Origin: a virus
Taxonomy: Duplodnaviria > Heunggongvirae > Uroviricota > Caudoviricetes
Reading direction: 5' to 3' (one strand)
DNA length: 64,000 nt
Virus record (IMG/VR): IMGVR_UViG_3300028886_000047
Shown here: positions 13,448 to 46,838 of the stretch, one piece after another
How the letters are laid out: each line of letters starts with the position of its first letter
Numbering within the stretch: the first letter of the stretch is position 1
Program-made: the position numbers and the translations under genes
The notes under the pieces: generated by a model
Databases searched by the model: none
Told to the model about the DNA's origin: nothing
Seen by the model: the letters and a program-made list of their open reading frames with translations, nothing else

Positions 13448-13448
13448 T

Positions 13449-16400
13449 ATGAGTTTTACGTGTAGTATTGATATTATTAGTAAAAAATATAATGAATCTT
13501 TAAGTTCGGAAAGTAAGGTAAAAGAAACCTTACTTTCCTTACTAAAAGATGGAGCAAATATTGAAGATATTATTTAGGTAGTAACTGCTCCTAGAAGTAC
13601 GAGAGAATTAAGAAGTTTAGCTCCCTCTAAATTACAACTTATTAAAAAATTCTAGGATGAAAAATTTGTGAGAGACTTTTTAGGGTCAGATAAAAATATT
13701 AATTCTCCTGAAGCAGTTACTACTTAGACAAAAGAATTAGCAATAGATAATCCAGATGCTATAGTTTAGAATGGAAAACGTGCTAGAATATGGCTCAGTG
13801 AATCTTGGGGTGTAGCGTCTTTAGCTTAGAATAAATTTGTACAAGATACTAATAGAGAAATACAAAGTAGAATATTAGGAATGATTAAAACAGCTAATCC
13901 TAATGAGTCTGCTGAGATAGTATTGAATAGAACTATTCAAGAATATTTTAATTATAATTTAAACTAGTTAGCTGAATTTTTTGATAAACAAGGTAAAAAC
14001 GATTATGCCAAAATTATAAGAGATAATATGCCGTTTGATGGAACTAATCCTAATGAAAGAATAAATTATATAATTAAATCTATTTCAGATTATTTTTAGG
14101 ATTATTCTGATTCAGAGAAAATGGCTTATACAGATTCTAAAAATTCCTCTTATGATAAAGCTAGAGCATTTGCTAGATTTTTACTTATATAGCCACTAAA
14201 TTTTGATAACTTTTTAGCATCTAATGTAAATTCTATATAGATTAGAAATAAGGGAAAATTAATGTCTACCATTGATAAATATGGAATTTAGTTAGGTAAA
14301 GGAAGATAGAATATGACTTGGCAAGATGAGGATGCTGTATATTCTATAGCAAAAATGGTTGATGATTTTGTATAGCGAGAAATAGGTAATTGGCCGTTAT
14401 ATCGCAAACAAGGAGACGTGTGGACTAGACAATCTGATGAATATTGTGAAACTAATAAAGTAGTAAGTGTCCTAACAAAAGTAATGCGAATAGCTGACGT
14501 TAAAAATAAAGATTTTACTCCTATTATAAATAATAAATCAAATAAGCCTATAATTGATGATTTAAAAGATACTTTTAGAATTGCTTTTGGAGTAAACATA
14601 GAAACTGGAAAAGAAGTAATAGATGATATTTTTGAGAGATATATTGAAGGCAGAACTATTCCTTAGATAGTAAGAAATATTAATCAAGCTCCTTAGTATT
14701 TATTACCTATAGTGATGTATTTATTAACGGAACAACACAATAGAGCTAAGAAAAGTAAAGCCGAAACTTCTTTTAAAGATGGAATAGTTAGATTGAATGA
14801 TAATGAAGTAAATATATTACATTCAATTTGGAAAAATATGTTTGATCCTTTAAATAATAATTCTCTATATAATCAAGTTTCTCAAAATAGAGATTTCGAT
14901 TTATATTAGATGATTAGTCAAGTATTATTAACTCACGATAAAAAGGAATTATACGGAATAGTTAATGATATGGGAACTATAGAAAAGAAAAACTATTCTT
15001 TAGGAAGGGCTAATCAACGTTTAAATCAATTACAGTCTAAAATTAACGGAGCTTATTCTCCATTATTAAATAAAGGAATTTATAATGTTACTGTAGAAAA
15101 TGATTTTGAAGGCGAAGAACCTAGTACTACAATTACATATAAAGTTCCTATGAAAAAGGATAAATATGTAATTAAAATAATAAAAGGAAAGAAAGCTACT
15201 ATAACTAAAGACGGAATATAGGTATCTGGTAATTTAAGTCAAGTATTATAGGATTTAAAAGGATTTTTTACTGATGTTATTAAAATAAAATTTAATCAAG
15301 GTAATTTATTAGATATTTATCTTAATAAAATAGGAAATGGACAACAGAAAGCGTTAGAAAATTTAGTTGATATTTCAGCAAATTTAATTTATGCAAATGA
15401 AATATCTAAATACCTAAAAGGCGAATCTACAAGCGACTTTAAGAATAAGTTAAAAGAATTTTATGATGCTACTATTAAACGTCCAAATTTAGTAAAAGGC
15501 GTGACTTATAATCAAATCGATGCTTTTTCTGGAAGAATGTTTCCGTTAATTACACAGTTGTCATTAGCTAATGATATTAATGAAGGAATTATTGGAGATA
15601 TTGTAGTCAAAGGAGGAGCTGGAGAATAGATTAATTCAGTAATCTTAAGAACCTTAACCACTCAACTTTCTCAATTTATGGAAGAAAAATCACAAGATCC
15701 AGAAAGTGCTATAAAACATTTTTCTATAAAAGATGTTATTAAAAGAATGACATTTTTAAGAGATTATGTCGATAAAACTGGAGATGTGAAGTCTTCTACT
15801 TCTATGAATGTAGAGGAGTTTTTCTTGAATAATTTTATATATGATTTTTATGGAGACAGTCTTGCTGTACATTTAGGGGTATTATCTGATAAACCTAACA
15901 TTCCTAAGATGGAATTATATGTAGACACTCAAATATTAGTAGGAAATGATGAAGGTGGAAAACAAATAATTAAAAAATTAAAAGATTGTACCTCTGATGA
16001 TTTGAAAAAGATAGCTATTAGAGAACTCGGTTAGTATTATAGAATGATGAAATAGGAGATTGATAGAAATCTTCAAATTCTTAGTAATTATTCTCCTAAA
16101 GGAATTATTTATGATATAAATACTGACTACATTGAAACTAGAGAATATTCTAAAAAAGAATTAGAAAATGATATTCATGAAGCTATATATGCAGCACAGC
16201 AAGCTGGAGAGGATATAGAAATAAATGAATTACTTTATTTTTCTTGGGATAAAGACGGAAACCTTCACACTAAACCTTCTTTAATAGCAGAACTTGCTAA
16301 ACACGACGTTCCTGTAAATAAATTAGGATTAATTACTGAAAACTCTGAATAGTTTTTTACAAGAAAAGAACATGAATTAGTTACTAATTTATTGTAGGAT

Positions 16401-19400
16401 TTAAAACACGGAATTAGCTTTATTGATTCTCAAAGTTAGAAAATTATAGATTCTTCCGCTGTAAAAAGAATGAGGAAAGCTAATGAAAATGGGTGGTCTA
16501 CCAAAAGTAATATTATAATAGGAAAAATTGTTAACGGAAAAGAATCTAGAAATTTAATTACTAAAAAAAGTTTAACTGATTGGAAAGTTTATAAAGATTT
16601 CTTTAAATACGCTCAAGAGTTTGGAGGGTTTAATTTAGATAAACTCAATATTAATGGTAATTTTGATTTTGAGTATTTTTTATAGGCTTTAAATGAAAAT
16701 TATAGTGCTATACAAGAGTATTCTCATCTGCAATCTTTAAAAAGAAAGATTAAAGATGAAATTAAGAAAAAATTATTAAAAACTTCTGAAGGTCTAGATA
16801 AAAAAGCTCTCACTGAACAATATAGACAATGGAGAAAAGAAAATAGGCCTGAAGAAACAGAAATAGAATTAGAACAAGCAGTTTTAAATTACGAAACTGA
16901 ACCTGACGAAAGAATTTGGAGAAGTAGAAATGCTTCTTATAAAACTGAAGGGATAGACAATATAACTTCTATTGATGAAATAGAAAAATTAAAACAAGAA
17001 TATAACTTAACAGATTTTGATACTACTTTAGAAAAGAAAAGTGGTAATTTTTCATTACAAATAAATCCAGAAATATCTAGGTATAATACTTTACATTATT
17101 TATATTCTGAGGAAGGATTAAATAGTACAGTAGGTTCTCATATCAATCATAAAGTTCCTTATACTAAAGATCTAACTTTAATGGGAGCTTTAGAAACAGG
17201 ATAGCAAGCTAAACGTAATGTATCAGAATCGGGTGCTAAAAATCAATACACTAGAAGTGACATTAACGGAATGGACAAAAATATGACAATTGCTGTAATG
17301 CGTGATGTAAAGGCCGGAATTTCTACTATTAATGGTATTCAAAATCCAAAAGGAGCTACTGTAATGGATGGTTCTACTATAGGAAATTATGTAACTAGAA
17401 AAGAAGAATTGTATTCTCTTGGGTCACAAAAAGCTGGAATAGAAAATTCAAAACCTCTTGGAGATGATTTAAATCCTAAAACTGGGACCGGAACTATTAT
17501 CAAAACCGCTGTATTTGTACTTACGAATAGTCGTATAAGAACGTCAGAAGCTAACATCATTCTTCATAAACATATGAACAGTATTCCTTGGAGAAATTTT
17601 GACGGAAACTTTTTAAGAGATTATGATGGAAATAATATTAATTATCATCCAGTAATCGTATTTAAACCTTCTGAAGAAAAATATTATTTAAGAACTGACT
17701 TCTAGATTGAAGAAGATGGAGTAACTTCATTTAAAGAATTAGAATTAGGTAATTAGGAACAAGCAAATAATTTATTAAAAGTTGATGTCGGAGGAATAAC
17801 TATAGGAGCCTTAATTAAAGCAGGAAGAGATTTAACTCCTTATCTTAATACAATTGCTGCAATAACTAAGCCTAAGATTATTGGAAATGTTGATGAAGCA
17901 TTTGATACAATAAGAACTACCAGACCCATTTCTAATAATTATGAATTATGGGATTTATTTGGAGGAGCTTATTCTGCTTCTATAAATGAAATGAACGATA
18001 TATCTTATAAAGACGATAATACTTCTTTAGAGAATCTTACTATAGCAGCTCATTCTTGTGGAACTAGAATAAATAGAGATGTAACTAGGCCATCTAATGA
18101 AGATGTATATTTGCCATTAAAAGAAGCTAAAATTGATTGGGTTGTTACAGAAGGAGCTATTAAACAAGGAGCTTCTAATGTAAATTCTACAGATATGTTA
18201 AAAGATATTAATTATAGAGTGACAACTCAACGTATAGCTACAGCAGATATTGGAATGTAGTTAAATCCTGAACACTTAGCAGACAATTCTCATATTACTC
18301 TTATGACTCAGGTTGTTAATGCTTTAGGTTTAAGAGGATTTAGTTCTGACGCTGCTGATAAAGTTTACAAAGCACTTGCTACTTTAACAGATACTTCATT
18401 AGAAGAATTGTTTAAAGGAATTGAATTGAAAAGAACTACCGGGGACGATAGTTAGTTTAAAGAAGCAGTTTCATCTTTGTTATTGAAATCTATAATAGGA
18501 ACCTCTGAAACCGATGGGGATTTATTATCTTCTATTGTAGTCCAACTTAATAAGCAAGATAGAACTGGACATGATTATGATATAATTAGACATAGACTTC
18601 CTATAAGTGACCCCGCAATTCTTAACAAATTAATAAGTAATTTCTCTTCATTAATGACAAAAGCGGGAGTAAGAATTCAGTTCCCAGGAAGTATGAATGT
18701 ACTTGTGCCCTCTGATGGAATATATAAAATACATGGAGGAAAATTGAGAAGTATAGCTCATACTCAAAGATATGTAGAAAATGACCTTATTCCAAATAAT
18801 GAAGAAATTGCTGAATTACAAGAATTACAAGAACTACAAAGAGAACAAAAACCTCTTAAAGGACTTCATGAAATAACTATAGGAGCTTCTTATTTTGTAA
18901 GAATAACAAATAATCATTTTAATTCTGACAATCCTTTATTATCTACTGTACTTGCAGGAAAATCTATAAAGGTTGATGATTTATCAACATATTATCAATT
19001 AAGAGATTTGTTAAAAGGGACTACTTATACATTAGTTGAAGATGTTATAACTGGAAGAGATTTAGCACCATATAATTGTACATTTAATACTAATAAGGGA
19101 ATGTATATGTTATGGGATTTAGATTCAATTAAACATATACATATGTTAGAAAACAATCCAGAAGAAGTATTAAATATATATAGTACATATACAGATGAAG
19201 AAATAGTTAGAGAATTTCATATTAATCCAGAATACTTAGATAGAACTGATATTAAATCTTTTACAGAATCTTTTAAAAAATTAATTAATAGAAGAAAACA
19301 AATAGAATTAAATTCTATAGGTTCTGGAAATAATAATAGTGTATTTATAGATGGACAAAAAGTATTTATCGATAAATCTACTTTAAAAGTTTCCCCCTAT

Positions 19401-22400
19401 GAATTAATTGCTCCAAAAAATTATAAAACTACTTTTGGATTATAGACTGGAGACAATGTTTAGGAAATATCTTAGAATAAGTTATTCTTCTTAAAAAGAA
19501 TGATTGACAATCAATACAGATTAGAAAACGGGCATTGGGTAGATAGAAATCCAATTTCTTCTGATAAATATGACATTATTCTAAAAACAGTTTCAGGAAA
19601 GTCTTATCCAATATTATATAAGTCTGATACAACTAAAATTCCAGAAGGGTTAAGTGTAATCACAGAATAGGATTTTTATGCAAATCTTGATTGGGATGGC
19701 AGTAAAGTTTACAGATTAAATGGAGATGGTGATAGAATTTATGAATTACCTTATCATAAAGATTCTTCTGGAAAGATAGTTTATGATGCAGAAATACTTG
19801 TCGATGAAAATGGAAATGAAGTTATTTATACTGATAAATTAAATTTCTTTGTAAATAAATTACAATTTAATTATGTTGATTTTGGAAAAAATATATTAAA
19901 TCTACCATTTATTTATGATATATTTAAGCAATTAAGTACTTCTAAGAAAAATTCGGTTAAACAATTATCTTCTAATTATTTATCAGAAATTGAACAATTT
20001 AATCAAGTTTCACGTTTAGAAGATAGAATAAATAATGAAAAAGATGAATAGAAAAAATAGGATTTGAGTACTAGATTAGTATAGATTACTTCTGGTGAAG
20101 AATTTAACAAATAGTTAAAACAACAAATATCTGAAGGATTTAATTTAAGAGATTAGTATTTAACCCAATTAAATACTGAAATTTTAGCTGGAGAAATTAA
20201 AGGAAATTATACTGGAATGTTTGCTCAGATAATTAACTCTGCTATTGAAACACATACATCGTTTATTAAATCTTTAGATTATATTGTTTCTAGAACTCCT
20301 GCACAATCACATCAATCGTTCATGCCTATGAAATTGGTAGCATTTGATGAATCAGATGTTAATAGCGCTTATGTAAGTCGTTATCAATTATATTTGCAAG
20401 GTTCAGACTTTGATGTAGATAAAGCTAGTTTACTTGGAAGTATTATACGAAATGGAAGGTATGTTGTATGGAGTCCCTTTATGAGTTTATAGTCTATAGA
20501 ACATTTAAGAGCTTCTGAAACATTACCATTTCCAACTGGAAAACAATTAGAAATAAGAGAAAGTCTTAATAGTCGTGTATATGATAAAATGGATAAACCT
20601 GTTCATTTAGTTTGGCATGATGATACAAGGATAACTTTTACTTTGCCAAATTTTGAATAGGAAATATATTTAGCAAAGAATCAATCTGGTATATGGGTAT
20701 CTAATTTAACTCAAGATATTATGAGAAATTAGATGACTCCAATGGAGGTATATTTAATTGAAAGAGCTATTACAGATAAAATCTCAGAAGGAGAAATATT
20801 TGACGCTCAATTTAATATAAGTCATTTAGGATTTAATGAAAATCGAGTAAAGGATTCTTCTAAATATTTATATGAAAAGGATTTTGAATAGTTTATAAAT
20901 TGTTTTGCTCCTATATTTGATTATAACGAAAAAGGGCAATTAGAATTTAATAAACTTACTGGAAGAGTAAGGCATATAATTGACAATATTGGCAATGAAC
21001 CACTTCAATATGATACTATATCTTACGAAAATTTAACACAAGATTAGTTAAAATAGAAATAGATTAATAATATAAAACAATTATCTATTTTAATTAATGC
21101 TTTAAATTCCTTTGGATAGATTCCAAAAGTAATGTCTAATGATTTAATGACAGCAATTTATAAAACTGTTAATGAACATAATTTATATTTTGTTAATTCT
21201 TTTGATACTAAAGACGCTGTAGTTAATTACATTAGTAGTAACATGTTTTAGATTTCTAGTGATCCAGTAAATTTAGTACAAGCTATGACTTCTGTGGATT
21301 AGCAGACTGATTATGTGAAAGAAGAAATTGCAAATAAGTCTCCGTTAGCTGAACAATCTAAACATTTTGATAAAGGAAATATAATGTCAATATTTAGATT
21401 ATTAAGATTAACCTTATCTGGAAAACAAAATACAGGTATAGAAGCATCTTCATTGAAAGTTATGGAAGCTATCAATCAATATTAGGATGTTATTCTTAAT
21501 TATGGTTCAGACGAAGAACAAAAATCATTAATCAAACCTATAAATATAGGAGGCTATAATATAGGATTAATATGTAATGCTTATTGTAAAAATATAGCAA
21601 ATATTAAATCTAAAGAAGTATATGACGCATTACAAGAAATCGATAATGATAATGACCAAGCTATATGGTTATCAGCATTCTTAAGTCTTAGTACTGACAA
21701 CGCTAAGGATCCTACTCTTGCTAAAATAAATGCTAATCCAGAAATGATTGGACTTTATAATTCCGGATTTGTGTTAGGATTGCCTATAAGTTTTTTATCT
21801 AAAATAATAATGTCTCCTACAGGAATGGCTATTGCCGATGTTCAATAGGGGGATATATTTCTGGGTTATAATAGTTCCAGAGATATAGGAAGAGTTATAA
21901 ATTATATTAAAGAAGGTCCTAGACTCAGTCCTAATATGACTACATTAGAAATATTAGGAAAAGCTATTCAACTACATAATCCCGGAGAAGTTACTATTTT
22001 TAATCTAAATAAACAACTTATTAGAAATTACTGGGATTAGTCTTAGTTATTAACAGCAAGAAGAATTATTGCATTAGCCAAAAGTCTTGCTTATGGTAAA
22101 GAAGGAGAAAAAATAGAATATAATATCCCTACTATTGAATCTAGATTATCTAGAGATATCTAGGTAACAAGACGAAGAATTTCTGGAATTAGTAAAGCTT
22201 TAGAAGCTAAGAAATAGCAAATAATTGAAAAAGATACCTTAGGAAGAAAACATAAAAAACTTGATGAAGATGTTACTGCATTAACAGCGTCTTTAGAAGA
22301 ATTGAATACAAAACTTACTGAATTACAAGATATTAAAAATGAATATAAAATAACTCAAACTATTCCTCAAAGTAGAAATGAAGGAGATTAGTATGATTTA

Positions 22401-24323
22401 TATGAAAAATACCTTGAAAATTATAATTCTATTAAAGATGGAGAACAGTCTGATTCTTTGAAAAAATTATTTTAGGATAATAAAGAATATATACAGAATT
22501 CTTCTAACTTCAAAAAGACTATTTAGGATATTGAAAACTGGTTAGATACTATTGAATAGGTTCAAATGGATGAAGGATACACAGATGCTGAAGGAAATAA
22601 ATATAGCACTGTAAAAATATTAGAATAGTTAAATGAATTTGCTTCGGAAATGTCCTTAATACGTCCAAATCTCAGCCTCAATCAACAACTTCCTAATTCT
22701 AAAGAAAATCAACTTTCATTTATTAAAAAATTTGAAAATATGATAAATGATAGAATTACCTTAGGAAAAGTTGAGAATGCAAGTAAAATCAATGAAATAT
22801 AGGATTTCAAAGACTTTAACGAGCGTAAAGGGATTGAGGGATTAAATATTTCTATATCTGAATTTGTATGGGATGAAGAATATAGAAATGCTGCAATAAG
22901 AGCATACGATTCTATTAAATTTAAAGTGAATGCTTTAGATGTACTAGTCAAAGTGCCTCATTATTTTGGATATTTAAAAGCTTGTGATGCTTTATATCAG
23001 TCATTAGCTTATCAGTCAGTACAATATAGAGAACAAGACAGAATCTTAAGTAAAATAATCATAGGAGATTTAAAAATAAAAGCATCCAAAGATATTTAGT
23101 CAAGATTGAAAGTTGCTTCTAGGTATATTTCTAGACAAATGAATAATATGTTCTTATTAGAACAAAATATAGAATTAACTATTCCTAAAATAACTGATGG
23201 TAAAGTTGATACTTCTGTAAAAGTTCCAATTAAATTAGGTACAAAAGAAGGAAATGAAGCGTTCAAAGAATGGATGGATTTTGTAATTATTCCTCAGTAG
23301 AAATCTAAGTATAAATCTAATAGATTTTTAAATGAACTTTCAGAGGCGGCTTATCATAAATCTGATAATCATAATACAATTATAAATTATACTACTAACA
23401 TAGATAGTATGACAAATAACCCTACCGAAGTTACAAAATTTGCTGAAATAACTGAGGGATTTAATAATTTGCAATCTAAAACTATAGGAGATTTGCCGTT
23501 AGTAGAAGCTTTCTTTTATTATGATTTAATAGCTTATGATAGATAGCCAGGTCAGTTATCATTAACTCCGATTTTTAATAAATTAGTAGCATTAGGGAAA
23601 ACTAAAGTTATTTCCGATTATGTTCAATTTGTATCAGACTTGGATTAGGGAGGCAATATTATTTTAACTTTAGATGAAAGTTAGATAGATGAAATTAAGA
23701 GATTTATAGCTCCTGTTATTTCCATTTATGCTTTAGATGAATTTGATGAAGAATATGGGTGGGTAAAAGATCCAGAAGACTAGCAATTTTATCTTATAAA
23801 GAGAAATCCTAAGCCTAAAAATAATAAAAACGATGATTTTGGCGCAATGGACGATCCTAATATTGATAATCCAGAAATAGATATTGAAGGAATAGGTCCT
23901 GATGGTGATATTAATTAGGAAGAAAATCCTGAAAATCCTCAATATTAGCAAATTACCTTGAGTTCTAAATTAGCAGAACTTGAATGGGAGCCTGGAGTTC
24001 GTAAATTCGAAAGAATTACAGATTCTGGAAATTTAAATAGCCCTTATATTGAAAATTTTATAGTTCAAGAACAACAAACGTTATTAGAAGGACAGGGAAT
24101 AATTACACCTAAAGAAATAAGATTCGGAAATGATTCAATTACATTAGATGATGGAAAACCTAATATTCCAGATAATATCAGAAAGAGATTACAAGAAATT
24201 ACTGGACAAAATAACATAGATGATTTAATAGTAACTAAAGTTATAGTTGAAGGCTCTTCTAGAGAAACTGTAATTGATATAGATACTACGAAAGGAAATT
24301 TAGAAAACCCGTGTAAAGGATGA
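13449..24323 (+). CDS. giant late-module protein (3624 codons), TAG-recoded, unknown function
   Basis: ATG 13449 lies 1 nt after the previous TAA. Frame 3 is open to the TGA at 24321-24323. I checked codon by codon across 20460-22060 and 13446-14700 and every interruption is TAG. Track frame-3 ORFs 14418, 14712, 14910, 15678, 16470, 17271, 17991, 18477, 20217, 23106 and 23958 are fragments. Confidence 0.55.
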
Positions 24324-24373: not shown

Positions 24374-25375
24374 ATGTCTGGTATTTCCGAGTATTCTTTA
24401 GATAGTTATATATCTACATTCTAGACAAAATTTAATAGAATGCCTAAGTTAGATGAATTACCTAGAGTTAACTCGGAACCTTATTTAGAGAAAGTTTTAG
24501 GAATTAAGAAATTATCTAATATAAGGACTATTAATACTAATAGACTACTAGAATATACAGGAACAAATTCTGTAGAAGAAGCAAATATTAAGTTAAATTC
24601 TATATATAAAGATTTAGAAATTACTTTAACTCCATTTTAGAGTTTTACTTCTATTGAAGTAAGACATAGGCCATCTGTATATACATCAATTAAAGAGCCT
24701 TTAAATATAGAAGAATTCAAATAGGATGGAGCTACCATTTTATCTAAACAATTAGATAAAATGTAGAAACTGTATGGGATAAATATAATTCCTGTTTCTA
24801 GTGATGAAATATAGGAATTAGGAATTCCTAATGGGTCTTAGGTTAAGGGATTTGTGAAAAATGGAAATATTTATATAAATATTGAAAATTCTACAATGGA
24901 TACTAAAGTACACGAATTAATGCATATATTTCTAGGAGGAATAAGATATTCTAATCCAGAATTATATTTTTCATTAGTTAATCAAGTAGAATAGCTCCCT
25001 AGATATTAGGAATTTTCAGAAAGATTTCCTAATAGAACAAGAGGTGATATTAACGAAGAAATATTTGTTCAAGAGTTTGCTAATTATTTAACTAAATCTC
25101 CTAGTATATTTGATAATTTTGAAAATACGAGTGAATTAATGTATGAAATATACAGGAATATAGATACATTAATAGATGGAAATTATAGTGTTAAATCTTT
25201 ACAAACTTCAGCGTTTGGAGAAACTTTGGAAAATTTATATAAAAATTTACAATCAGAAAATATAATTAATAAACAAACAGGTTCCTTAGATGATTCAACT
25301 TTACATAGGACACTTGCTAATGTAAAAGAAAATTTAATGAAAAAGAATTTATTGGAGGAAAGATGTGATGGCTAA
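24374..25375 (+). CDS. late-module protein (333 aa), TAG-recoded, unknown function
   Basis: Frame 2; first ATG after the upstream stop. In-frame TAGs at 24422 and others. Ends TAA 25373-25375. Track ORFs 24440 and 25139 are fragments. Confidence 0.5.
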
Positions 25376-25442
25376 TTGTAAATATATATTAGGATAGAGA
25401 GTTTTTAATTCAGAAATATAGTTAGACGATTATCTTTCTGAA

Positions 25443-28400
25443 ATGAAAAATTTATATAAATAGTTTGGAGATGAAGTATTTAGTAAATCTTGGACTCCTG
25501 TATAGCAAACATATAGACAAAAATTATTTTCTTAGAAGGAATAGCTAGAAAAAGCTATCAAATCAGGAAAAATAAAGCTAGAAATTTCTGATATGGAAGA
25601 TTTAGATTTAGATGGAATAGTAGATTCCGCTGAAGGAAGAGGTGTTACTTCTATAATGTAGGAATTAAAAAGTTTAGATAATAAAAACGTATTTCCTATT
25701 TTTAACAAAGATAATTATTGGAATAATATAAGAGGAGAATTACGAGACGGAAATTGGAATAGTGATAAAATTAAAGATTTTATTCCATATATATTTGACG
25801 AAAGAGACTCTGAAGGAAATTATATAACACATCCTATAACAACAGAGGAAGAATTTAATCAGATAAGAAATAGGATAGAATCTATGTGGAAATAGCAAGG
25901 ATTAATAGGAACCGTTGTTCACGATATATTTGATATTTTATATTCAAATTATACTACTGAAAATGGAACTAATATTAAAAATTTGCCAAAACAATAGTTT
26001 AAAGAGGAAATTAAAAGAATATTATCTAAAAAACCAGAACCTAATGCCTATCGTAAATTATTAAATGAATTTGGAACCGATTTAAATAAAAATAATAGTT
26101 TTTTAGAGAGTGTTATAGATAATGCTCTTAAATTTAATGAGGATTTGAAACAACAATTTGATCCTAAAAATGAAGGATTAATGGTGCTTCCCGAAATTAC
26201 TATAAAAGGTATGGCTACTCTAAATAATCAATTATTTAAAGTAATAGGACGTATGGATATGGTAGTAATTAAACCTGATGGTGAAGTACATATAATCGAT
26301 TATAAATGTTCTCCTAAAGAATATCGAAATTATAACGAAGCAAAAAAATTAACTTTTAATTATCAATTAGCAGTATATAGAAGAATTCTACAACAATTAG
26401 GAATAAATAAAGATCAGATTCATTTATGGGTAGTTCCGATTTAGTTTACTAATTTTGATATAGATAAATCTAATAATTTAGTAACTTTAGATGGAGTAAA
26501 ATTACGTGATGGCGCTACCTTTGAAGAATTAGAAGTATCTTCTCCTACTGTAAATGCTCATAAGTATCAAATAGTTGAAGATAACTTAAATAATTCATTC
26601 AAATATGAACACGTTGAAGATGTTTCTGATGAACATATTCTTGAAAAAACGAGAAATTGGATAAGAAAAGTATTTCCTGAATATTCTAAAATTTCGGAAG
26701 TAACCGACGAGAATGTATTAGATTTTTGCAAAAGAAGAAAATGTGTAGTATAGGATGAAAAAACTGGAAAATGGGGATTTAGACGATATAAAAATGCTGA
26801 TTTGAAATATGTTAAAGATACAGAACAAGAAGTAATAAATGCTATCAAACAAGAGTGGGAAAATAATAGATAGAGAAATTTAGAAAGTACTAAATCTATA
26901 AAGAGAGAATTAAAAAAAGCTCAAAAAGAAAATTTAGGCAGAGGAGCTTTGTTTAATATTACACTATATTCTAAAGATAAACAATCTTAGAAAACTCCTG
27001 ACTGGGCACAGCAAATTCTTCAAAAATATGCTAATGAAGATTGGACAGTAGAAGAAACTCCAGAAGCTCTTGATTCTTTAGGAATAATTCTTGTTAGAAA
27101 TTTAACAACTGATAGAATCGATGTTATTAAATTATCTTCTACATACGATTTAGATGCTGAAATAGGTTTTGGCAATAATAGAACAACATTATTTGGAAAC
27201 TTTGTGTCTGACCATGTTGCAAAGAGTTAGCCTAATTCGTTAGTAATGCAAAGTACTAGAGGAAATGTAGAACTTATGGAAACAATGTATGCTTTAAATT
27301 GTATGCCTAGTATATTTAATAACGATAATGCGTTTTTAGGAGAAATTCAAGTAATATCTCATTATAATGAAGGAGGAGGAGCTAATAATAAATCTTTATT
27401 GTATAATTTTTAGAAATTAATGAATTATTCTAATAAAGAAGATTCGCCAGAAGTTAATTATTTTAATAATAAAAATATAAAAGTAGCTTCATTTGTACAA
27501 TTAGCTTAGGATACTTTAACTAGAATAATTAATAATAATCGAGGAACAAGATGGAACAAATTTGAGGAAGCTTCTAATAATTTACACAAATTTCAAGGTA
27601 ATAAAGAACAAATACTTTCTGAATTAATTAAATTAAAACAGCAAATAGAAAACGTTCCAGGATTTGAATATTTAGCCAGAGATGGAGTGATGACTTCCAT
27701 ATATGATGATTATAATTCTCCAGAAAAAAGGTTATATGCAGAAGTAATGTTAGCTATAGGAGAAATAGGAGGGTTAACTTATCAACAACAAACTAAAGAC
27801 CACGCTAACATTTTTGAAGGAAACAGTTTAATAAAAGCTTTTTTATGGGATGGATTTAATGGAAATCTTACTGACAACCCTGGAACTCTTCGAAGTGAAA
27901 CCTTAAATCAAGCTTCACATCTTGTAGATGTTGCTTATTAGAATATTCGTGATTAGTTATTCAAATATAAAAATAATTTAGAAAAAATATTAGATGAATA
28001 TAAATAGTATAAGGGACAATTTGCTAGTTAGAAAGATTTATATGAGAATTTTTATAATAAAGATATAACTGATGATTTAGTTTTTAAAAACCCCTTTGTT
28101 CCAAATAACGGATTAGATGATATGGAAAGGAAAGTTTTAAAAGCTATATTGTTGGATATTGCTCATAGAAGAAATTCTACAATTATTAATGAAGATACCT
28201 TGAGATCCGCAATTGAAAATGACTCTGATTATCTTTTAGTTCCATTAATTAAAAGTACTAGTAAACCTGTAACTAAATCATTAGGTGATTTTATGTCTAG
28301 AACTAGAAAGTTCTTAATGGGATTTAATATTAAAAATGCGAAAGATTCTTTAAAGGAAAAGTTATTAGATTTTACATCAAAAGAATCTATAAATGAGCCT

Positions 28401-30257
28401 AATAGGGAGGAAACTATATGGGAAATGACTAATTCCATAGATATTAATCCCGAAAATAGAAAAGAAAGGATAACTTTAGGAGGAGGCATAGAAAATTTTG
28501 AAACTAATTTAGAAATGTTGGCATTAAAACATGAATATGCTTATATTTAGAAACAAGAAGTTAATAAAATATTGCCATTTATGAAAGCCCTTTCAATTCA
28601 TTTGGCTAATCAAGGAATTATATTAAATGATAATTTTGAAAATGACCTAAATTATATCTAGAATTTTATAAAAGCTAAAATTCAAAATAAAAAATTATAG
28701 GATATTTAGTCGTTAGATAATTCATTTGTTTCTGATTTAATGAAAGGAACTTCAATATTAGCATTAGCGTTTAATCCCAAACAGCTCTATCAAATAATAG
28801 ATGGATTGTGGAAAGATATAAGATTAATTGTACAAAATGCTCATCGAGAGGGTGATGTAAATATGTCATTTAAAAATTTTAAGGATTCATTTTTTTGGAT
28901 AATACAAGATGTTGCAAAATTTAATGGAGAATTATCTATAGGAGAAGCCTTGAATCAATTATATGGAATTAATGATATGGATATAAACTAGCTTCCAAGT
29001 AGATACGCTAAAGATACTTATGGAACAGATAGGCTTCAAAAAGCTATGTTTAGATTTGCGTCAAGGCCTGACTATTATAATCGTATGACTATTTTTGGTG
29101 CACAGATGAGAGGAGACGGTTGTTTTGAAGCTCATTCAATAGTTGATGGTCAGTTAGTATATGATTGGACTAAGGATAAACGTTTTGATATATTTGCTAA
29201 ATATAAAGGAGATATATCTAAAGTTCCTACTTCAGAACAAAATAAATTCAGACAATAGCAATCTTTATATAGTGCTATGGCAGACGAAATGGTTAAAGAT
29301 GGAACTTTAAATCCTGATGGAACTAAATTTGTTAAAGATATGAAAAATCCTAAACCCCTTCCAAAAGCTTATACAGTAAAATAGTCTGAATCAATGAAAG
29401 CATTAGGAGATAAAACTTATGGTTATTATGCTTCTGAAAAGAAATCATTAATACAAAGTTTTACCTTAGGAGCTATTATATTTCAAATGAATACGTTCTG
29501 GTCTTCCAAAAAGAATCAATATTTCTCTGGAAGAGGTTATACTTAGGAAGGGGAATTTGTTGATTATGTTGAAGAAAATCCAGAAGATCCAGAACATCCG
29601 ATAGAATATTGTTAGAAATACAATAAAGAAACAGGAGAAATGGATATAATAAGAAAAGATGTTGAAGACACTGGAATCCCTTATAAAGTGTGGAAAGGTC
29701 GTCCTCAAGAGGGAATAGTAATAACTCTTAGTCATATGATAGCTAATATAATTACTGGAGAAAGAGATTATGAGGGAATACGTTTTTGGGACCCATATTG
29801 GAATGATGATGACCCCTATCTTAGAAAAATGTATAGAGCAAATCTTAGACAATTATTAGCAGACTTACTTGGAATGATATTGATTGGTATGATAATATCT
29901 CCCAGTCTAGTAAATGCCGCAAATAGTTATGCTAAAGAAACGGGTTCTGAAACCATAGGAGAAGCGACAATGGGATATTTAGCCACTTTATCTGCGGGGA
30001 TGTTACAAACATCTACTGATGATTTTAATTTTACAAAATCAGTATTTGGTAGAGGTATTCAATGGACTCCTTTTTCTTTACAATCTGGAACTAGATTTTT
30101 AACTAATTGTGGAAATTGGTTATTTGGAGATTAGGATTTTTATGATACATTAACAAAACAAATAGCATTTACAAGAAATGCTAAACCTATTATGAACTTT
30201 ATAAAAAATGAAACTCTCGGCAGAGACATAGGAGATAATGGAAAATCTAAAGAATAA
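25443..30257 (+). CDS. large late-module protein (1604 codons), TAG-recoded, unknown function; hydrophobic segment near the C-terminus
   Basis: Frame 3. ATG 25443 is the first ATG after the frame-2 stop. Open to TAA 30255-30257 with only TAG interruptions. Track ORFs 26145, 27687, 28122, 28740, 29046 and 29640 are fragments. Confidence 0.55.
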
Positions 30258-39683: not shown

Positions 39684-40244
39684 TTATTCAGTTAATTTTG
39701 TACGATATTCTTTTAATGTCGTTAAAAACAAATTAGTATCTGTGAAACCACAAGATTTAAACTCTGGACAGAATCCTCGATATATACAATTAGGAATACA
39801 AGCATTAGCAAGTTCAGGTTCTATTTTTCTAAGTTCAAAGATTACTTCATTCCAGATTTTTCTTGTTTCACTTTCTGCTTTATTACAAAGCCTTGCCTTT
39901 GAGATATTAATAATTTCTTGTGCATTTAAAAATAATCTCATATTTACAGGGTCAGTTTTTTTTTGTTCTTCTCTTGGAATCTGCTTCCCATCTATGTCTG
40001 GACGTGAAGTACTTACGAAAGGTTGTGAATGTACATGTCGAACGAGATGTACTGACACATAATTTGGAATGTCATAAAAATCTATATTGAACATTAAACA
40101 TCTCAAAGGAGAATGTTCTGCTTTAATAATATTCTTTTTAAATTCAACTGAAGGTTCTTTATCAAGAAGCTCTTTTCTCTGTGTAAATCTAGCTGCATTA
40201 AGAACGTCTTTCCAAGAAGTTACTTTTGTTATTTCAATTCTCAT
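39684..40244 (-). CDS. possible divergent ThyX-like (flavin-dependent thymidylate synthase) protein
   Basis: N-terminal ...NAARFTQ and RHVHSQPFVSTSR resemble the ThyX AARv... and RHR-x7-SxR motifs. The match is weak and the protein is short (186 aa). Confidence 0.3.
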   Translation of the reverse strand: MRIEITKVTSWKDVLNAARFTQRKELLDKEPSVEFKKNIIKAEHSPLRCLMFNIDFYDIPNYVSVHLVRHVHSQPFVSTSRPDIDGKQIPREEQKKTDPVNMRLFLNAQEIINISKARLCNKAESETRKIWNEVIFELRKIEPELANACIPNCIYRGFCPEFKSCGFTDTNLFLTTLKEYRTKLTE

Positions 40245-41263: not shown

Positions 41264-41923
41264 TCAATGCACCCAGAAGGTAGGCAATTCCCCATTAGGT
41301 AGTCTTGAAATATCTGCAGAAAGAAGCACTCTAGTACAGAACGGCTTAGCTCCTTTCTCCATACATTGTCGGAGTACTGATGCTACTTCTTCTGCAATAG
41401 AATCAGGAGCTTCTACATTCCATTCATCATGACATTGCAGACATATTAAAACTTTATTTTGATAATTATTTTTTAATATCCATTTAAAGAATAATATGCC
41501 TGACAATTTTGTTGCCATTGCTCCTCTATTTTGTATTCTGTAATTAATAGAATCTTTTTGAATATCTGTTTTAAATTTATTCCATTGTCCTAGCCAATAC
41601 ACTTCTTTACTATAAGGGTCATCACTTTTCATACTTTGATATGCTTCCCACCATCCAGGTTGACTTGTAAAATCTCTAATAGCTTTCCATTTATTGTCCC
41701 AATCTTCTATATGTGCTCTATGTCCAGTTACTGGATTCATTAAAATATATCCACGTTTTATTACCTCTTTACGACAATAATCTTGATATTTTTTAACTCC
41801 AGGGAAACCTTTCATATAAGAATCATAAATTTCTTTAGCTTCCTTTGGGTCTAGGCCATTGTTTTGTACCATAGTGGAATCATTTCCTCCGTAATTTATT
41901 GCGACAAATAGATATAACAACAA
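41264..41923 (-). CDS. polA: family A DNA polymerase, C-terminal part (rest of motif B AINYGG, motif C LQCHDEW)
   Basis: ...FVAINYGGNDSTM continues motif B, which is broken at the end of ORF 43034..44710. HDE motif C is present. Confidence 0.7.
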   Translation of the reverse strand: MLLYLFVAINYGGNDSTMVQNNGLDPKEAKEIYDSYMKGFPGVKKYQDYCRKEVIKRGYILMNPVTGHRAHIEDWDNKWKAIRDFTSQPGWWEAYQSMKSDDPYSKEVYWLGQWNKFKTDIQKDSINYRIQNRGAMATKLSGILFFKWILKNNYQNKVLICLQCHDEWNVEAPDSIAEEVASVLRQCMEKGAKPFCTRVLLSADISRLPNGELPTFWVH

Positions 41924-43045
41924 AATATCTATCGGACTATCTCATAACCATATACTTATAAGTACTTAGGTCCGGAATGCTTAAACTGGTTATTAAGAGA
42001 CTAAATCTCTCCAGTAGTCTCTGCACCTCTCGAAGTTGTATCTTCGATTTGGCTCATGGTTGGCCCTGACACTGCTTTCCATGAATTCGTTCCGTTTGCA
42101 TAAGAGAGTTTCCAACTCTTAGGAGCTCGTTTTAAATAAATACCTTTATATGGTGTTCCATCAGTACAATGATTAGCTATTTTACTTGGGTCCAATGTTT
42201 TTCTACCATTAGACCTTAATTTTAAAGGTAAATCATTATATTCCGATTTACTATATTCCACTAAATCTGATGTACACCAAAAAGTATTTAGCCAGTTTTT
42301 ATTTATATCATATACAACAATATATGCTGACCTATCTTTTATTTTTTGAGCATTATTCATATGTACTGCTTTCATAGCAGCACTTACTCCATTTTTTTTA
42401 GGCTTACGCATATTTTTCGTTTGTTCTTCGGTCATTTTTATTCCTTTATTCCAGGCTTTCATGCCTTTATAATAACCTCTTTTTTCGGAATATTCTTTAA
42501 TAAATTGTTCGTATTCTTCCGGAGAAAGTTCCTCTTTTTTCTTTCTCCACCATTCTTTATGTGTTATAGAACTTTTTTCACAAGAAGAAATATTTAACAT
42601 TGGAGAAAAATTTGGATTTGGATTTTCATTATAACCATTATTATAACTATCAAACTTTTCTATATAAAAAGCTTCTCTATCCAATAAAATATTTTTATCT
42701 TCTATTATCTCCAATATTTCACAAACAAAACAATCAGTTCCGAACTCATTCCAATCTTGTTGTAATGATTTACAATGATGTTTTTGTGTCTTTAATTTTG
42801 ACACATGTTGTTTAAATCTTGACATAAATGATTTCCAAGTACTTCCAACATATACCATATTGTTTTTAGTATTGTAAATCCTATAAATGCCTTTTAATTT
42901 TAAATTGTCAATTTCTTCTGATTTAATTTTTACTTTCATAATATTTTTATTTTAATTCCAAATAAAAATATTAATTTAAGGCATAAAACAAAAGGCATTT
43001 ATATTTAATTTATGTTAAAATTTGTTTTGTCATTTACTCAATGGA
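41924..43045 (-). mobile_element. insertion interrupting polA at motif B: putative group I intron (or free-standing HEG cassette) carrying a GIY-YIG endonuclease
   Basis: Exon 1 reads ...YRQAAK then stops after SIE. Exon 2 resumes ...AINYGG. A 312-aa GIY-YIG ORF with its own start lies between, with ~80-90 nt untranslated flanks. Confidence 0.45.
42001..42939 (-). CDS. GIY-YIG homing endonuclease (standard code)
   Basis: N-terminal KGIYRIYNTKNNMVYVGSTWKSFMSRFKQH is the GIY-(x10)-YVG motif. It sits inside polA. Confidence 0.7.
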   Translation of the reverse strand: MKVKIKSEEIDNLKLKGIYRIYNTKNNMVYVGSTWKSFMSRFKQHVSKLKTQKHHCKSLQQDWNEFGTDCFVCEILEIIEDKNILLDREAFYIEKFDSYNNGYNENPNPNFSPMLNISSCEKSSITHKEWWRKKKEELSPEEYEQFIKEYSEKRGYYKGMKAWNKGIKMTEEQTKNMRKPKKNGVSAAMKAVHMNNAQKIKDRSAYIVVYDINKNWLNTFWCTSDLVEYSKSEYNDLPLKLRSNGRKTLDPSKIANHCTDGTPYKGIYLKRAPKSWKLSYANGTNSWKAVSGPTMSQIEDTTSRGAETTGEI

Positions 43046-44710
43046 TTTGGCAGCTTGTCTGTATTGTTTATATTTTTTAGGTATTTCAGATATAGGAGTA
43101 TCTCTTGGAATTGCTTTTGGGTATGACATGTAAGCTACTAACGCATGCATATCAGCACATTCTCCAGGATCGTATATATGTAACATAGCAGCATCATTAG
43201 CTACAGATGCTAGAACACGACTTTCTTGCGATTGAAAATCTTCTGAAATCCATTTATTACCTTTTTCAGATATAAAACAAGCTCTAGTCTCAGCTTTTCT
43301 TGGAATTTGTTGACAATTTACTCCAGACTCTCCTCCCCCACTACTTAATCTAGCTGTAGCGGTACCTAGTTGATGAAAATCGGCATGTATTCTACCTGTT
43401 ACTGGATTAATTGCCTTTAACCAATTTTCTCCAAAAGAATCACAAACTTTAGAAGCTTCTTTGAATTTTACATAAGCATCAGCTAGTTCTGGACATACAT
43501 TTCGCTGAGATTTAATGGTATCAGAATCAGTAGACTTTTTCTTTTGTTTAGTCTTTTTATCAAAGGTATCAAGTTTAAACCCCAATAATTCAAAAAATGG
43601 AATTGTTTGTTTTGGACTTTTCCAATTTATGTTACAAAATGGAGTTGGATCAAATTCTTGAAACAAATCCATCTGTAAATTTTGTTCTATATAAGGAAAA
43701 GGAACTTCAACTTCTTCGCAATAAAGAGTTCCTACATCTTCTATGCCAGAATCTCTGGTATAATACTTTTTAAATTTTTTGGCTGGCGGAAATAATTTTA
43801 TATTATATTTTTTAAGGTCTTCTTCATCATGAAGCCATTGCGTATCTAAAACGTGTTCTACAACTATTGTTTTAAACCTAATATTTCCTTGATGTTCATT
43901 AAAATATTTAAGAACAAAATCATTTAATTTTTTAGAGGCTTCTTTTTGCTTGTCCTTATCCTTAGCCATTTTAGCTTTCCACTTTTCTACGTCAAGTTTA
44001 ACTCCACAAAATTCTATATAAGCAAGGACTTTAACAAATTCGTTTTCTAAATCTACTGCTTTTTGAAGTTCCTCTCTATCAATATCCTTTTGTTGAGATT
44101 CCTTAATGTCTTCCAGATACATTACATCTGTGGCAGCATACTGCACAACTTCTGGAGTTAATCCAACTGTTTTAATTCGACCTCTGACAGTTTTATCTAG
44201 TTCTATTCCCAGTCTGTTTTTTCCAACAGCTTTTAAAGAGCAACTAATTTCATAATAAGGTTCTTTAGTTTGTTTATTTTCTTTTTGCAAATATGGAAAT
44301 GAATATCCTTCATTAACATACTCACGTGGAGGAATAGGCCTACGACTATATCCAAGCCAAATTAACTGTTCAGCTAACATAGTATCATATACATGTTTAG
44401 GCCATATATCATAGTAATATAAATATTTTAAATCAAAAGCTGCGTTATGAAATATAAATAAACGTTCTGACTCAAAAAATTCTTTAAAAAGTTTTATAGA
44501 ATAAGAGGACTGATCAAATACATATTGATTTTCTTTATTTCCTAGTTGATAACATAATAAAGGCTTAGTATAGACATCTAATCCCATTGTTTCAGTATCA
44601 ACCTGAATGACTTCTAGTTTTTCTAATGCTTCTTTGGCTTCATCAAAAGAAATTTCCTTATATAAATCAGTTTCAAAGAGTTGCTTTTGATTACTTATAA
44701 GAAATATCAT
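43034..44710 (-). CDS. polA: family A DNA polymerase, N-terminal part: 3'-5' exonuclease (Exo I VDTET, Exo II NAAFD, Exo III YAATD) plus palm with motif A DFQSQESRVLA and start of motif B RQAAK
   Basis: Motifs seen directly in the translation. Confidence 0.8.
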   Translation of the reverse strand: MIFLISNQKQLFETDLYKEISFDEAKEALEKLEVIQVDTETMGLDVYTKPLLCYQLGNKENQYVFDQSSYSIKLFKEFFESERLFIFHNAAFDLKYLYYYDIWPKHVYDTMLAEQLIWLGYSRRPIPPREYVNEGYSFPYLQKENKQTKEPYYEISCSLKAVGKNRLGIELDKTVRGRIKTVGLTPEVVQYAATDVMYLEDIKESQQKDIDREELQKAVDLENEFVKVLAYIEFCGVKLDVEKWKAKMAKDKDKQKEASKKLNDFVLKYFNEHQGNIRFKTIVVEHVLDTQWLHDEEDLKKYNIKLFPPAKKFKKYYTRDSGIEDVGTLYCEEVEVPFPYIEQNLQMDLFQEFDPTPFCNINWKSPKQTIPFFELLGFKLDTFDKKTKQKKKSTDSDTIKSQRNVCPELADAYVKFKEASKVCDSFGENWLKAINPVTGRIHADFHQLGTATARLSSGGGESGVNCQQIPRKAETRACFISEKGNKWISEDFQSQESRVLASVANDAAMLHIYDPGECADMHALVAYMSYPKAIPRDTPISEIPKKYKQYRQAAKSIE

Positions 44711-45709: not shown

Positions 45710-46029
45710 TGTTTTGTGTGCATAAATTCATATAAAAAGTTAGAAAAAGTTTGAGCCATTTCCTCAGAAAATTCAGTATTATAATACCATTGAAAAGAAT
45801 GAATTAGTTCGTGATAAAATGTTCTTTCCATATCTTCATCAGTCTGGTCATATACTTCATTTTCTTCCTCAACTTTTCTACCCAACTCTATCTCATTTCT
45901 TGCCGGAGAAAAATCTCCAAATCTGCCATCCTCTAATATATCTTTCTGAATAACTTTAATAGTTTTTCCACCTGCTATTTTAAACTCATTTGGAATATTC
46001 ATAATAATGACTTTAAAGTTTTTCCACAC
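45706..46029 (-). CDS. small HExxH metallopeptidase-like protein (YHELIHSF)
   Basis: A single HExxH motif. Located immediately downstream of the sigma factor gene. Confidence 0.3.
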   Translation of the reverse strand: MWKNFKVIIMNIPNEFKIAGGKTIKVIQKDILEDGRFGDFSPARNEIELGRKVEEENEVYDQTDEDMERTFYHELIHSFQWYYNTEFSEEMAQTFSNFLYEFMHTKQ

Positions 46030-46838
46030 CTTTGACGTAATTTTTTAATTGCGTTCTTTCTTAATTGTCTAACTCTTTCTTCTCCCAGATTTAAATCTTT
46101 TGCTATTTCTTTAATAGGTTTCTCTACTCCCTCTAATCCATAAAAAAGTATTATAACTTCTTTTTCTTTCGGAGTTAATATAGAAAGAGTATCTAAGATT
46201 GTAGAACGGTTAAAATTATCAATGATGTTAGAATTTTTATCTGGAATTATATCACTTAAAGTACATTTCTCGTCTAATAGTATTGGAGTATCAAGAGATT
46301 GAATATAAGACCTATTAACAATAGTAGCTTTATATTGATTTTCTGTAAAATCAGTTAATTCGATAATTTCCTCTGGGGTAGGTTCTCTACCATTTTTAGT
46401 CACAAAATTCTCTATAACCTTTTTAGACTTCGATAATTTACTTATATAAGTTATTGGATATCGAATTGTTCTACTAGTATTATAAATTTCTTTTAGAATT
46501 TCTCTTCTAATGTACCATACTGCAAAACTTAAAAATTTATATCCTTTATCGGGATTAAATTTATCTAAACTTTGAATTAGTCCACATACTCCACAATCAA
46601 TCAAATCGACGAGTGGAACTCCTTGATTCACATATTTTTTAGCACAAGTTATAATAAACCTTAAATTACTATTTACTAATTTGTCTTGTGCTTTTAAATC
46701 TCCATTTTTAGCTTTTCGAGCTAATTCAATCTGTTCCTCACTAGAAAGTATTGGATAGCGAGAAATATCTTTAAATAATACTTTTAATATATCTGAATTT
46801 TCATTTAATATATTTTTAGATATTTTTATTTCCTTCAT
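45999..46838 (-). CDS. sigma-70 family RNA polymerase sigma factor (regions 2 and 4 present, no region 1)
   Basis: Region 2: ...LRFIITCAKKY...LVDLIDCGVCGLIQSLDKFNPDKGYKFLSFAVWYIRREI. Region 4.2: IAKDLNLGEERVRQLRKNAIKKLR. Confidence 0.7.
   Translation of the reverse strand: MKEIKISKNILNENSDILKVLFKDISRYPILSSEEQIELARKAKNGDLKAQDKLVNSNLRFIITCAKKYVNQGVPLVDLIDCGVCGLIQSLDKFNPDKGYKFLSFAVWYIRREILKEIYNTSRTIRYPITYISKLSKSKKVIENFVTKNGREPTPEEIIELTDFTENQYKATIVNRSYIQSLDTPILLDEKCTLSDIIPDKNSNIIDNFNRSTILDTLSILTPKEKEVIILFYGLEGVEKPIKEIAKDLNLGEERVRQLRKNAIKKLRQRCGKTLKSLL

Follow-up and report, generated by a model that had tools for sequence, protein, structure and literature searches.

A probable group I intron encoding a GIY-YIG endonuclease inside motif B of a crAss-like phage DNA polymerase gene

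The 64,000-nucleotide stretch of viral DNA analyzed here (IMG/VR record IMGVR_UViG_3300028886_000047; hereafter the window, meaning the whole stretch) carries on its minus strand a family A DNA polymerase gene (PolA) in two pieces, with a gene for a GIY-YIG endonuclease between them. The interruption is very probably a mobile group I intron, IA-like and extended by a P7.1, that a crAss-like gut phage carries in its polymerase gene, inside the Phe codon of motif B; judging from its sequence, this intron is almost certainly self-splicing. A first-pass annotation of the same DNA, made from the letters and their open reading frames (ORFs) alone, had favored reading the interruption as a group I intron that bears a homing endonuclease, and this reading is supported by a covariance-model match, by covariation in 11 inserts, by the U and omega-G splice sites, and by the restoration of a polymerase of 771 amino acids (aa). 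The element has the anatomy of its class, its structure is conserved among related introns, and its removal leaves a gene collinear with an uninterrupted homolog.

The interrupted polymerase gene and its junction

The three minus-strand ORFs listed in the first-pass annotation exist with the coordinates given in Table 1, and its description of a split family A polymerase holds. In Pfam searches, the N-terminal piece matches DNA_pol_A_exo1 (3'-5' exonuclease) and positions 29-193 of the 381 positions of the DNA_pol_A profile, the C-terminal piece matches positions 217-373 of the same profile and contains motif C (HDE), as had been claimed, and the ORF between them matches the GIY-YIG catalytic domain. 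Since the two DNA_pol_A segments are complementary, the outer ORFs are halves of one family A polymerase. By tblastn, this polymerase groups with those of crAss-like phages, its best annotated matches being crAss001 and IAS virus at ~44% identity. Many uninterrupted homologs of ~770 aa are present in a large protein database, mostly on short contigs and several on contigs of 135-200 kb. Megablast matched the 4-kb region to none of the GenBank phages, and there is therefore no close sequenced relative among them.

The two pieces had first been joined as RQAAK^AINYGG (carets mark junctions throughout), in the belief that this gave a canonical motif B. Uninterrupted homologs place the join four residues downstream, at SIE^FAINYGG, since the spacing R-x-x-x-K-x-[IV]-E-F-x-x-x-Y-G-G is found in 41 of the 42 homologs aligned, including P0001, an uninterrupted protein 98% identical to that of the window, which reads RQAAKSIEFAINYGG. 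On this alignment, the earlier match of AINYGG to AINFG is a chance coincidence of register. The sole join that reproduces the homolog spacing is that of U 43036 to 41904, giving ...AUU GAG U^UC GCA AUA AAU..., and the predicted ligated-exon junction reads ...CCAUUGAGU^UCGCAAUAAAUUAC.... Excision at these points (GAGU^...G^UCGC) produces a coding sequence (CDS) of 2316 nucleotides (nt) for 771 aa, of the same length as the uninterrupted gene of locus L001 and 97.6% identical to it in nucleotides. Because the excised CDS is collinear with that of L001, we place the intron at 43035..41905 (1131 nt); the last base of the 5' exon is U and that of the intron is G (omega-G). The comparison with uninterrupted homologs that the first-pass annotation had called for thus yielded a collinear 2316-nt gene and moved the junction. 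A different splice guess, AAAU^...G^CAAUAA (...AKSINYGG, 767 aa), is in frame and fits the U/G rule, but the homologs show that IEFA would be missing from its product. Considering that a join such as AKS^INYGG can obey frame and U/G rule and still be wrong, homologs are needed to place junctions of this kind.

When the restored protein is aligned with Taq polymerase, the Phe of SIEF falls over the Phe of TINF, which is F667 of Taq and F762 of the Klenow fragment, the O-helix residue that discriminates dideoxynucleotides. By this alignment, the insertion lies inside motif B and splits the codon of its Phe (F762, numbered via Taq). Exon 1 ends with U 43036, which doubles as the T of the TAA codon at which the N-terminal ORF seems to stop. 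No in-frame ATG, GTG or TTG is present in exon 2 until a Met 10 codons past the split Phe codon, beyond motif B. The start originally assigned to ORF 41264-41923 was a mechanical one, a TTG at 41923 that lies in the P9 hairpin of the intron; exon 2 begins at 41904.

Table 1. Features of the polymerase locus and of the recoded block elsewhere in the window
Feature	Coordinates	Strand	Length	Remarks
ORF 43034-44710	43034-44710	-	558 aa	N-terminal polymerase piece
ORF 42001-42939 (GIY-YIG)	42001..42939	-	312 aa	begins in P1 loop, continues through core
ORF 41264-41923	41264-41923	-	219 aa	C-terminal polymerase piece
Exon 1	43036..44710	-		exonuclease domain, motif A, first half of motif B to ...RQAAKSIE plus first Phe base
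Exon 2	41264..41904	-		last two Phe bases, AINYGG (rest of motif B), motif C (HDE), C terminus
Group I intron (predicted)	41905..43035	-	1131 nt	begins AAAUGA..., ends ...UAUUUG (omega-G 41905)
Intron 5' leader (start of P1 loop)	42940..43035	-	96 nt	AT-rich, non-coding
-7 box-like TTTATTTG	42966-42959	-		one mismatch; 27 nt before endonuclease ATG
Internal guide CGA-GCUC	42123..42129	-		P1 and P10 strands; also encodes Arg-Ala of endonuclease
P1	GCUC 42126-42123 with exon-1 GAGU 43039-43036	-		U.G at splice site
P10	CGA 42129-42127 with exon-2 UCG 41904-41902	-		
P2 hairpin	42102..42120	-		AAGAG/CUCUU
P3 5' strand, P4, P5, P6, P6a	42025..42094	-		P3 5' strand CGGAA 42094-42090; P4 UCAUGG/CCAUGA; P6 GCC/GGU; P6a UCGAAG/CUUCGA
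P7 (guanosine-binding helix)	GACUA 42019-42015 with UAGUC 41939-41935	-		
P7.1	42014-41986	-		
P3 3' strand	41977-41973	-		UUCCG
P8	41971-41947	-		
P9 hairpin	41933-41907	-		GAUAGAUAU...AUAUCUAUU, then U and terminal omega-G 41905
TAG-as-sense ORF	1242-4730	+	1162 aa	
TAG-as-sense ORF	4724-13447	+	2907 aa	
TAG-as-sense ORF	13416-24323	+	3635 aa	
TAG-as-sense ORF	25341-30257	+	1638 aa	

Ribozyme anatomy and the overprinted endonuclease gene

The Rfam covariance model RF00028 (Intron_gpI) matches the minus strand at 42147..41909 with 47.7 bits (E=1.2e-10, model positions 1-253) in a local scan of 41700-43300, and the alignment includes the canonical P7 strands GACUA/UAGUC. The GIY-YIG intron found at the same site in locus L003 passes the gathering score of this model (50 bits, an operational threshold and not a biological criterion) with 57.9 bits. 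Other related inserts above it are a second, LAGLIDADG intron of L003 (55.9 bits), the L002 intron (65.1 bits) and L004 (51.9 bits, considered for its insert and not for the gene that hosts it).

Eleven introns from the same site were trimmed to mini-introns, in each of which the ORF body was cut out so that the 5' junction adjoins the part running from the guide to the 3' exon; these were aligned (alignment A1) and scored against a hand-drawn structure of 51 pairs that comprises P1, P10, P2, P3, P4, P5, P6, P6a, the P7 pseudoknot, P7.1 and the outer part of P8. Standard pairs fill 98.9% of the 561 cells; with the 3' partners shifted 1-3 columns out of register, the figure is 36-46%. Compensatory double changes affect 12 of the 51 pairs, which none of 500 shuffles matched; they fall in four of the five P3 pairs, four of the six P6a pairs, two pairs of P2, one of P7.1 and one of P1. 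We regard the switch in P1 as the most telling covariation: the helix is 100% paired with U.G in all 11 introns, reads GAGU/GCUC in nine of them and GAAU/GUUC in L014 and L015, and has its strands ~1 kb apart. P2 is also 100% paired, both of its compensatory pairs being in L014 (AAGGA/UCCUU), while P7 is invariant and a G precedes the 3' exon in 11/11. P10 (UCG/CGA) is 90.9% paired. MAFFT failed to align P9 and the interior of P8, yet both form hairpins in every member, with differing sequences. In the window itself P1, P10, P3, P4, P6, P6a, P7, P7.1, P8, P9, the U.G pair and omega-G are intact. A P1 extension between the first intron bases (AAAU...) and the pre-guide stretch was sought by eye, and only AU-rich matches of 4-7 bp appeared, with no convincing covariation.

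The guide (42129-42123) lies directly upstream of P2, its normal place, and 906 nt downstream of the 5' splice site. Because the 96-nt leader and most of the endonuclease gene separate the splice site from the guide, the ORF is lodged in the P1 loop. In ORF-less relatives of the core, P1 is a compact hairpin that a very similar P2 follows directly, which agrees with insertion of the ORF into this loop. The last 129 nt of the ORF (42129-42001, 43 codons) span the guide, P2, the 5' strand of P3, P4-P6a, and the 5' strands of P7 and P7.1, and its TAG stop (42003-42001) lies in the P7.1 loop. Untranslated flanks had been attributed to the endonuclease gene; this is right for the 5' leader, with its 96 non-coding nt, and wrong for the other end, where the last 129 nt are guide and half of the ribozyme core.

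Across 34 aligned endonuclease homologs (A2), the last ~45 residues are the best conserved (R-A-P-K-S-W-K-L-S-Y-A-N-G-x-N-S-W-K-A...G-A-E-T-T-G-E), the proteins being otherwise 52-60% identical in distant members. The guide codes for Arg-Ala-Pro, and its GUUC variants for Arg-Val-Pro. An AlphaFold model built with A2 is confident to about residue 277 (block-mean pLDDT ~85-93), and residues 278-312 have a pLDDT of 30-37. A tail that is conserved yet predicted to be unfolded is what would be expected if the RNA sets the constraint and the protein tail is a passenger. Overlap between a group I element and a nuclease gene also occurs in the Bastillevirinae (PMC11878797); the overlap described here is more extensive than its precedents, though it involves no new principle.

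Read-through of the endonuclease TAG would add 15 codons, as far as a TAA at 41956-41958, across the 3' strands of P7.1 and P3 and into P8. The homologs have TAG, AAA or GAA at this position, followed by SS and a stop, and several database translations show the TAG as Q (GEVQSS), which corresponds to code-15 gene calls.

The predicted product is an I-TevI-type GIY-YIG homing endonuclease. It matches PF01541 (GIY-YIG) with 49.3 bits against a cutoff of 22.6, TIGR01453 ("group I intron endonuclease") with 71.9 bits against a cutoff of 56.05 over residues 16-240, and homing-endonuclease families of PHROG. The catalytic domain resembles that of I-TevI (1MK0/1LN0) in sequence, with E about 5e-14 (1MK0, E=4.6e-14), and also in its modeled structure, for which Foldseek gave a TM score of 0.85-0.90 on target, a root mean square deviation of 1.1-1.2 A and 43% identity. 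The ORF is open, its catalytic motifs align with those of I-TevI, and the protein has more than 120 full-length homologs. For the C-terminal, DNA-binding domain (residues ~190-277), no significant structural match was found, only a weak one to I-HmuI (E=0.17).

Upstream of the endonuclease ATG, a box in the leader (Table 1) resembles TAnnTTTG, the consensus of the Bacteroidetes-type -7 box. Perfect copies of it are located at -28 to -30 from the ATG in five of 10 homologous introns, against a shuffled mean of 0.44 in 10. An internal promoter for the endonuclease is therefore plausible, and, since the copy in the window is imperfect, its promoter function is something that we only infer.

Mechanism and competing explanations

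From this anatomy, and by analogy with known introns, we infer splicing, endonuclease activity, homing, an internal promoter and a mutual exclusion of translation and folding, along the following lines. The polymerase gene would be transcribed as one pre-mRNA, and ribosomes on the unspliced RNA would stop at the UAA made up of the last exon base and the first two intron bases. The guide CGAGCUC, ~0.9 kb past the 5' splice site, would pair with exon-1 GAGU (P1, with its U.G) and exon-2 UCG (P10), and a guanosine-initiated transesterification would excise 1131 nt and join GAGU^UCGC, giving the 771-aa polymerase that reads ...RQAAKSIEFAINYGG.... The gene in the P1 loop, probably transcribed from a promoter of its own, would supply the endonuclease, which would cut intron-less polymerase alleles of co-infecting phages, the repair of which would copy the intron in (homing). 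Because the guide and the 5' half of the catalytic core lie within the endonuclease frame, an RNA molecule that is being translated into endonuclease would be unable to fold as a ribozyme, and vice versa.

Several results weigh against a functional intron of this kind. The RF00028 score of the window is slightly below the gathering score, whole-window Rfam scans (at the gathering threshold and at E<=0.01) found no intron, P5 has an A.G mismatch (common to L005), P1 is only 4 bp and long-range, and the -7 box is imperfect. Considering that the intron is lost in a search of 64 kb and found in one of ~1.6 kb, the speed filters evidently drop it. The first-pass annotation had suggested an Infernal/Rfam search as a check and had named the lack of a covariance-model hit as grounds for rejecting the intron; the local 1.6-kb scan gave the RF00028 match, the whole-window scans gave nothing, and with such empty scans these grounds, taken literally, would have misled.

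The empty scans would also suit a polymerase split by a free-standing GIY-YIG gene, with two polypeptides that assemble in trans, as in nrdA/mobE of Aeromonas phage Aeh1 and gene 43 of phage 25. Split genes of this kind exist and give active enzymes (PMC2988022), and the N-terminal ORF of the window does have a proper stop codon. We nevertheless give this explanation almost no credence, considering that a complete, covarying group I core surrounds the endonuclease gene and that its guide pairs with both exon ends. Moreover, the C-terminal piece is without a start codon until motif B is over, the cut falls within a codon, and excision restores exact collinearity. A decaying intron, with splicing lost or dependent on a host or phage cofactor and the polymerase gene defective or helper-dependent, is very unlikely in a window where all required ribozyme elements are intact, where nothing interrupts the endonuclease ORF and its catalytic motifs can be aligned with those of I-TevI, and where the exons match an intact allele at 97.6% identity, free of frameshifts. 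A score under the gathering score and the P5 mismatch are what such decay might leave behind, and it appears to happen in the family, as L022 is without omega-G and most of P8.

Two other candidates were rejected. An intein does not fit with the stop codon at the 5' junction, the separate ORF, the 96-nt non-coding gap and the lack of a Hint domain (Pfam detected only GIY-YIG), and an assembly artefact does not fit with the presence of the same architecture on many independent contigs from different samples.

Distribution, genomic surroundings and relation to known introns

Seven GIY-YIG homologs (53-86% identity) led to 12 loci (L005-L016), and in all 12 the gene lies inside a PolA gene; the GIY-YIG gene of L003, which came from a scan of viral contigs, is also within PolA. 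The distinct copies inspected share the insertion position, with the junction ...GA[G/A]U^[A/C]A.... Occupancy of the site is patchy among close relatives, an indirect sign of mobility: some have the intron, whereas the site is empty in P0001/L001 (98% protein identity), as it is in 56 more distant viral loci. The intron-less target of the L001 type reads ...ATTGAATTTGCAATA.... Up to ~75 nt from the junction, the window and L001 are distinguished only by positions -2 (GAG in the window, GAA in L001) and +2 (UUC in the window, UUU in L001). Both changes are silent, and both improve the pairing with the guide, by a G-C pair in P1 and a C-G pair in P10. UUU is present in 38 of the 38 scorable intron-less alleles, and U^UC in 10 of the 11 intron-bearing ones. 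These exon changes would fit co-conversion during homing, or selection for P1/P10 pairing; the linkage is only suggestive because the sample is phylogenetically lumpy, 32 of the 38 alleles being of one sequence type.

Further insertions are found in polymerase genes of this group. At 6695-7790 of L002 (a 77-kb Logan contig of SRR33574464), the LAGLIDADG group I intron scored above is inserted 7 nt downstream in the same motif B, with the junction ...GCGAU^...AAUAG^AGGAUAUGG, which makes motif B a hot spot for unrelated endonuclease families. The polymerase genes of L003 (with its LAGLIDADG and GIY-YIG introns), L006-L009 and L015/L016 carry two or three insertions each, and N-terminal fragments of ~497 aa among the homologs indicate that insertion has taken place at one or more other sites upstream of motif B. 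The GenBank record of CrAssphage cr116_1 (L097, NC_055882.1 33303-36278) annotates PolA as two CDSs (599 and 78 aa) around an "endonuclease" CDS and lists no intron; there the gene is split at another site, nearer the C terminus.

The core signature, as the exact 21-mer GGTGCAGAGACTACTGGAGAG, is present in 24 IMG/VR viral loci (L017-L040), some of the copies being at the PolA site and some ORF-less in other genes. In L018, L019, L029 and L034-L037 the core copies are followed by tRNA-like T-arm sequence (...GGTTCGAATCC...), which suggests that they are tRNA-gene introns of the same ribozyme family. The PolA-site copy of L022 (IMGVR_UViG_3300001528_000174) ends in A where a terminal G is expected (...CCUAUA^UCGCG), and its P8 is truncated, with most of it lost; it may be a decaying, non-splicing copy.

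In the rest of the window, the plus strand at 1-30257 gives short ORFs in the standard code and giant ones with TAG as sense (Table 1), and for this reason TAG appears to be recoded in this block. The standard code applies to the minus-strand replication block (31-62 kb). TAG recoding has been described for crAss-like phages. ARAGORN found no tRNA gene in the window, and tblastn together with a motif scan found in it no second endonuclease or second core of the same family. Upstream of the polymerase, a 279-aa minus-strand ORF (45999-46838) has a sigma-70-like C-terminal helix-turn-helix, and the equivalent ORFs of L009-L012 have Pfam Sigma70_r2/r3/r4 matches, which points to a putative phage sigma-like factor beside the replication genes. 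A 186-aa ORF at 39684-40244, also on the minus strand, is by its appearance a putative flavin-dependent thymidylate synthase (ThyX/Thy1), and Thy1 genes (PF02511) lie downstream of the polymerase genes in L013 and L014.

The overprinted frame might conceivably be an obligatory switch, by which the pre-mRNA is either spliced, for polymerase, or translated, for endonuclease, with TAG, apparently a sense codon in the late genes of the phage, being suppressed late in infection so as to add the read-through; we consider this unlikely. If true, it would link the code switch of the phage to a shut-off of polymerase splicing and to an altered endonuclease.

Ever since SPO1, family A polymerase genes of phages have been known to host group I introns. 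Such introns are described from SPO1 (I-HmuI), SP82, Bastille (I-BasI), Pf-WMP3 (I-PfoP3I), phiL7 and PhiI/W31 (I-TslI) (PMC3428280, PMC11878797), at E. coli Pol I sites 674 (SPO1, SP82, Bastille and Pf-WMP3), 676 (phiL7) and 881 (PhiI and W31), and I-HmuI, I-HmuII, I-BasI and I-PfoP3I are biochemically characterized HNH nicking enzymes (PMC3428280). The intron of the window is like the SPO1-type introns in its host gene family, in its location in a conserved, critical stretch of the fingers and palm, and in the UAA at the intron start (PMC3428280), but it lies at the motif B Phe codon and comes with a GIY-YIG enzyme. With the td intron of T4 and its I-TevI it has in common a GIY-YIG gene within a group I intron of an essential phage DNA-metabolism gene, and an ORF whose 3' end enters structured intron sequence (PMC2988022). 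However, the I-TevI ORF is in the P6a loop, whereas that of the window is in the P1 loop and reads 129 nt through guide and core; moreover, the host gene is a polymerase and not a thymidylate synthase, and the phage is crAss-like, of Bacteroidota. At the ORF level, the arrangement is identical to Aeh1 nrdA-mobE and phage 25 gene 43, with two enzyme halves around an endonuclease gene, but those have no ribozyme and their halves are translated independently, whereas the window has a ribozyme and a second half without a start.

In the portions of the account by Yutin et al. (2021) drawn on here, core genes of crAss-like phages of the Delta and, above all, Zeta groups, with genomes of 145-192 kb, are densely populated by group I introns that bear endonuclease ORFs, the named hosts being MCP, PolB, primase, ATP_43b and TerL, and the introns having been identified by protein domains (PMC7886860). 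The intron described here belongs to the same phage order, and relatives of its polymerase are on contigs of 135-200 kb; the PolA motif B site and the RNA anatomy are absent from those portions (PMC7886860). In gut jumbo phages, thousands of group I introns have been predicted, with metatranscriptomic support for splicing in 37 of the 76 checked (PMC12880540). The particulars of the intron of the window are its different site, its GIY-YIG enzyme, and a P1-loop ORF with extensive overprinting of the core.

For annotation, the locus should be recorded as one spliced gene for a 771-aa polymerase and not as two fragments and an endonuclease. Routine genome-wide Rfam scans will under-count introns of this kind, and the intron counts for gut phages are likely to be underestimates. 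The Phe codon of motif B is added to the classical insertion sites of the polymerase, and the ribozyme core and guide double as protein-coding sequence, while the general picture of phage mobile introns is unchanged.

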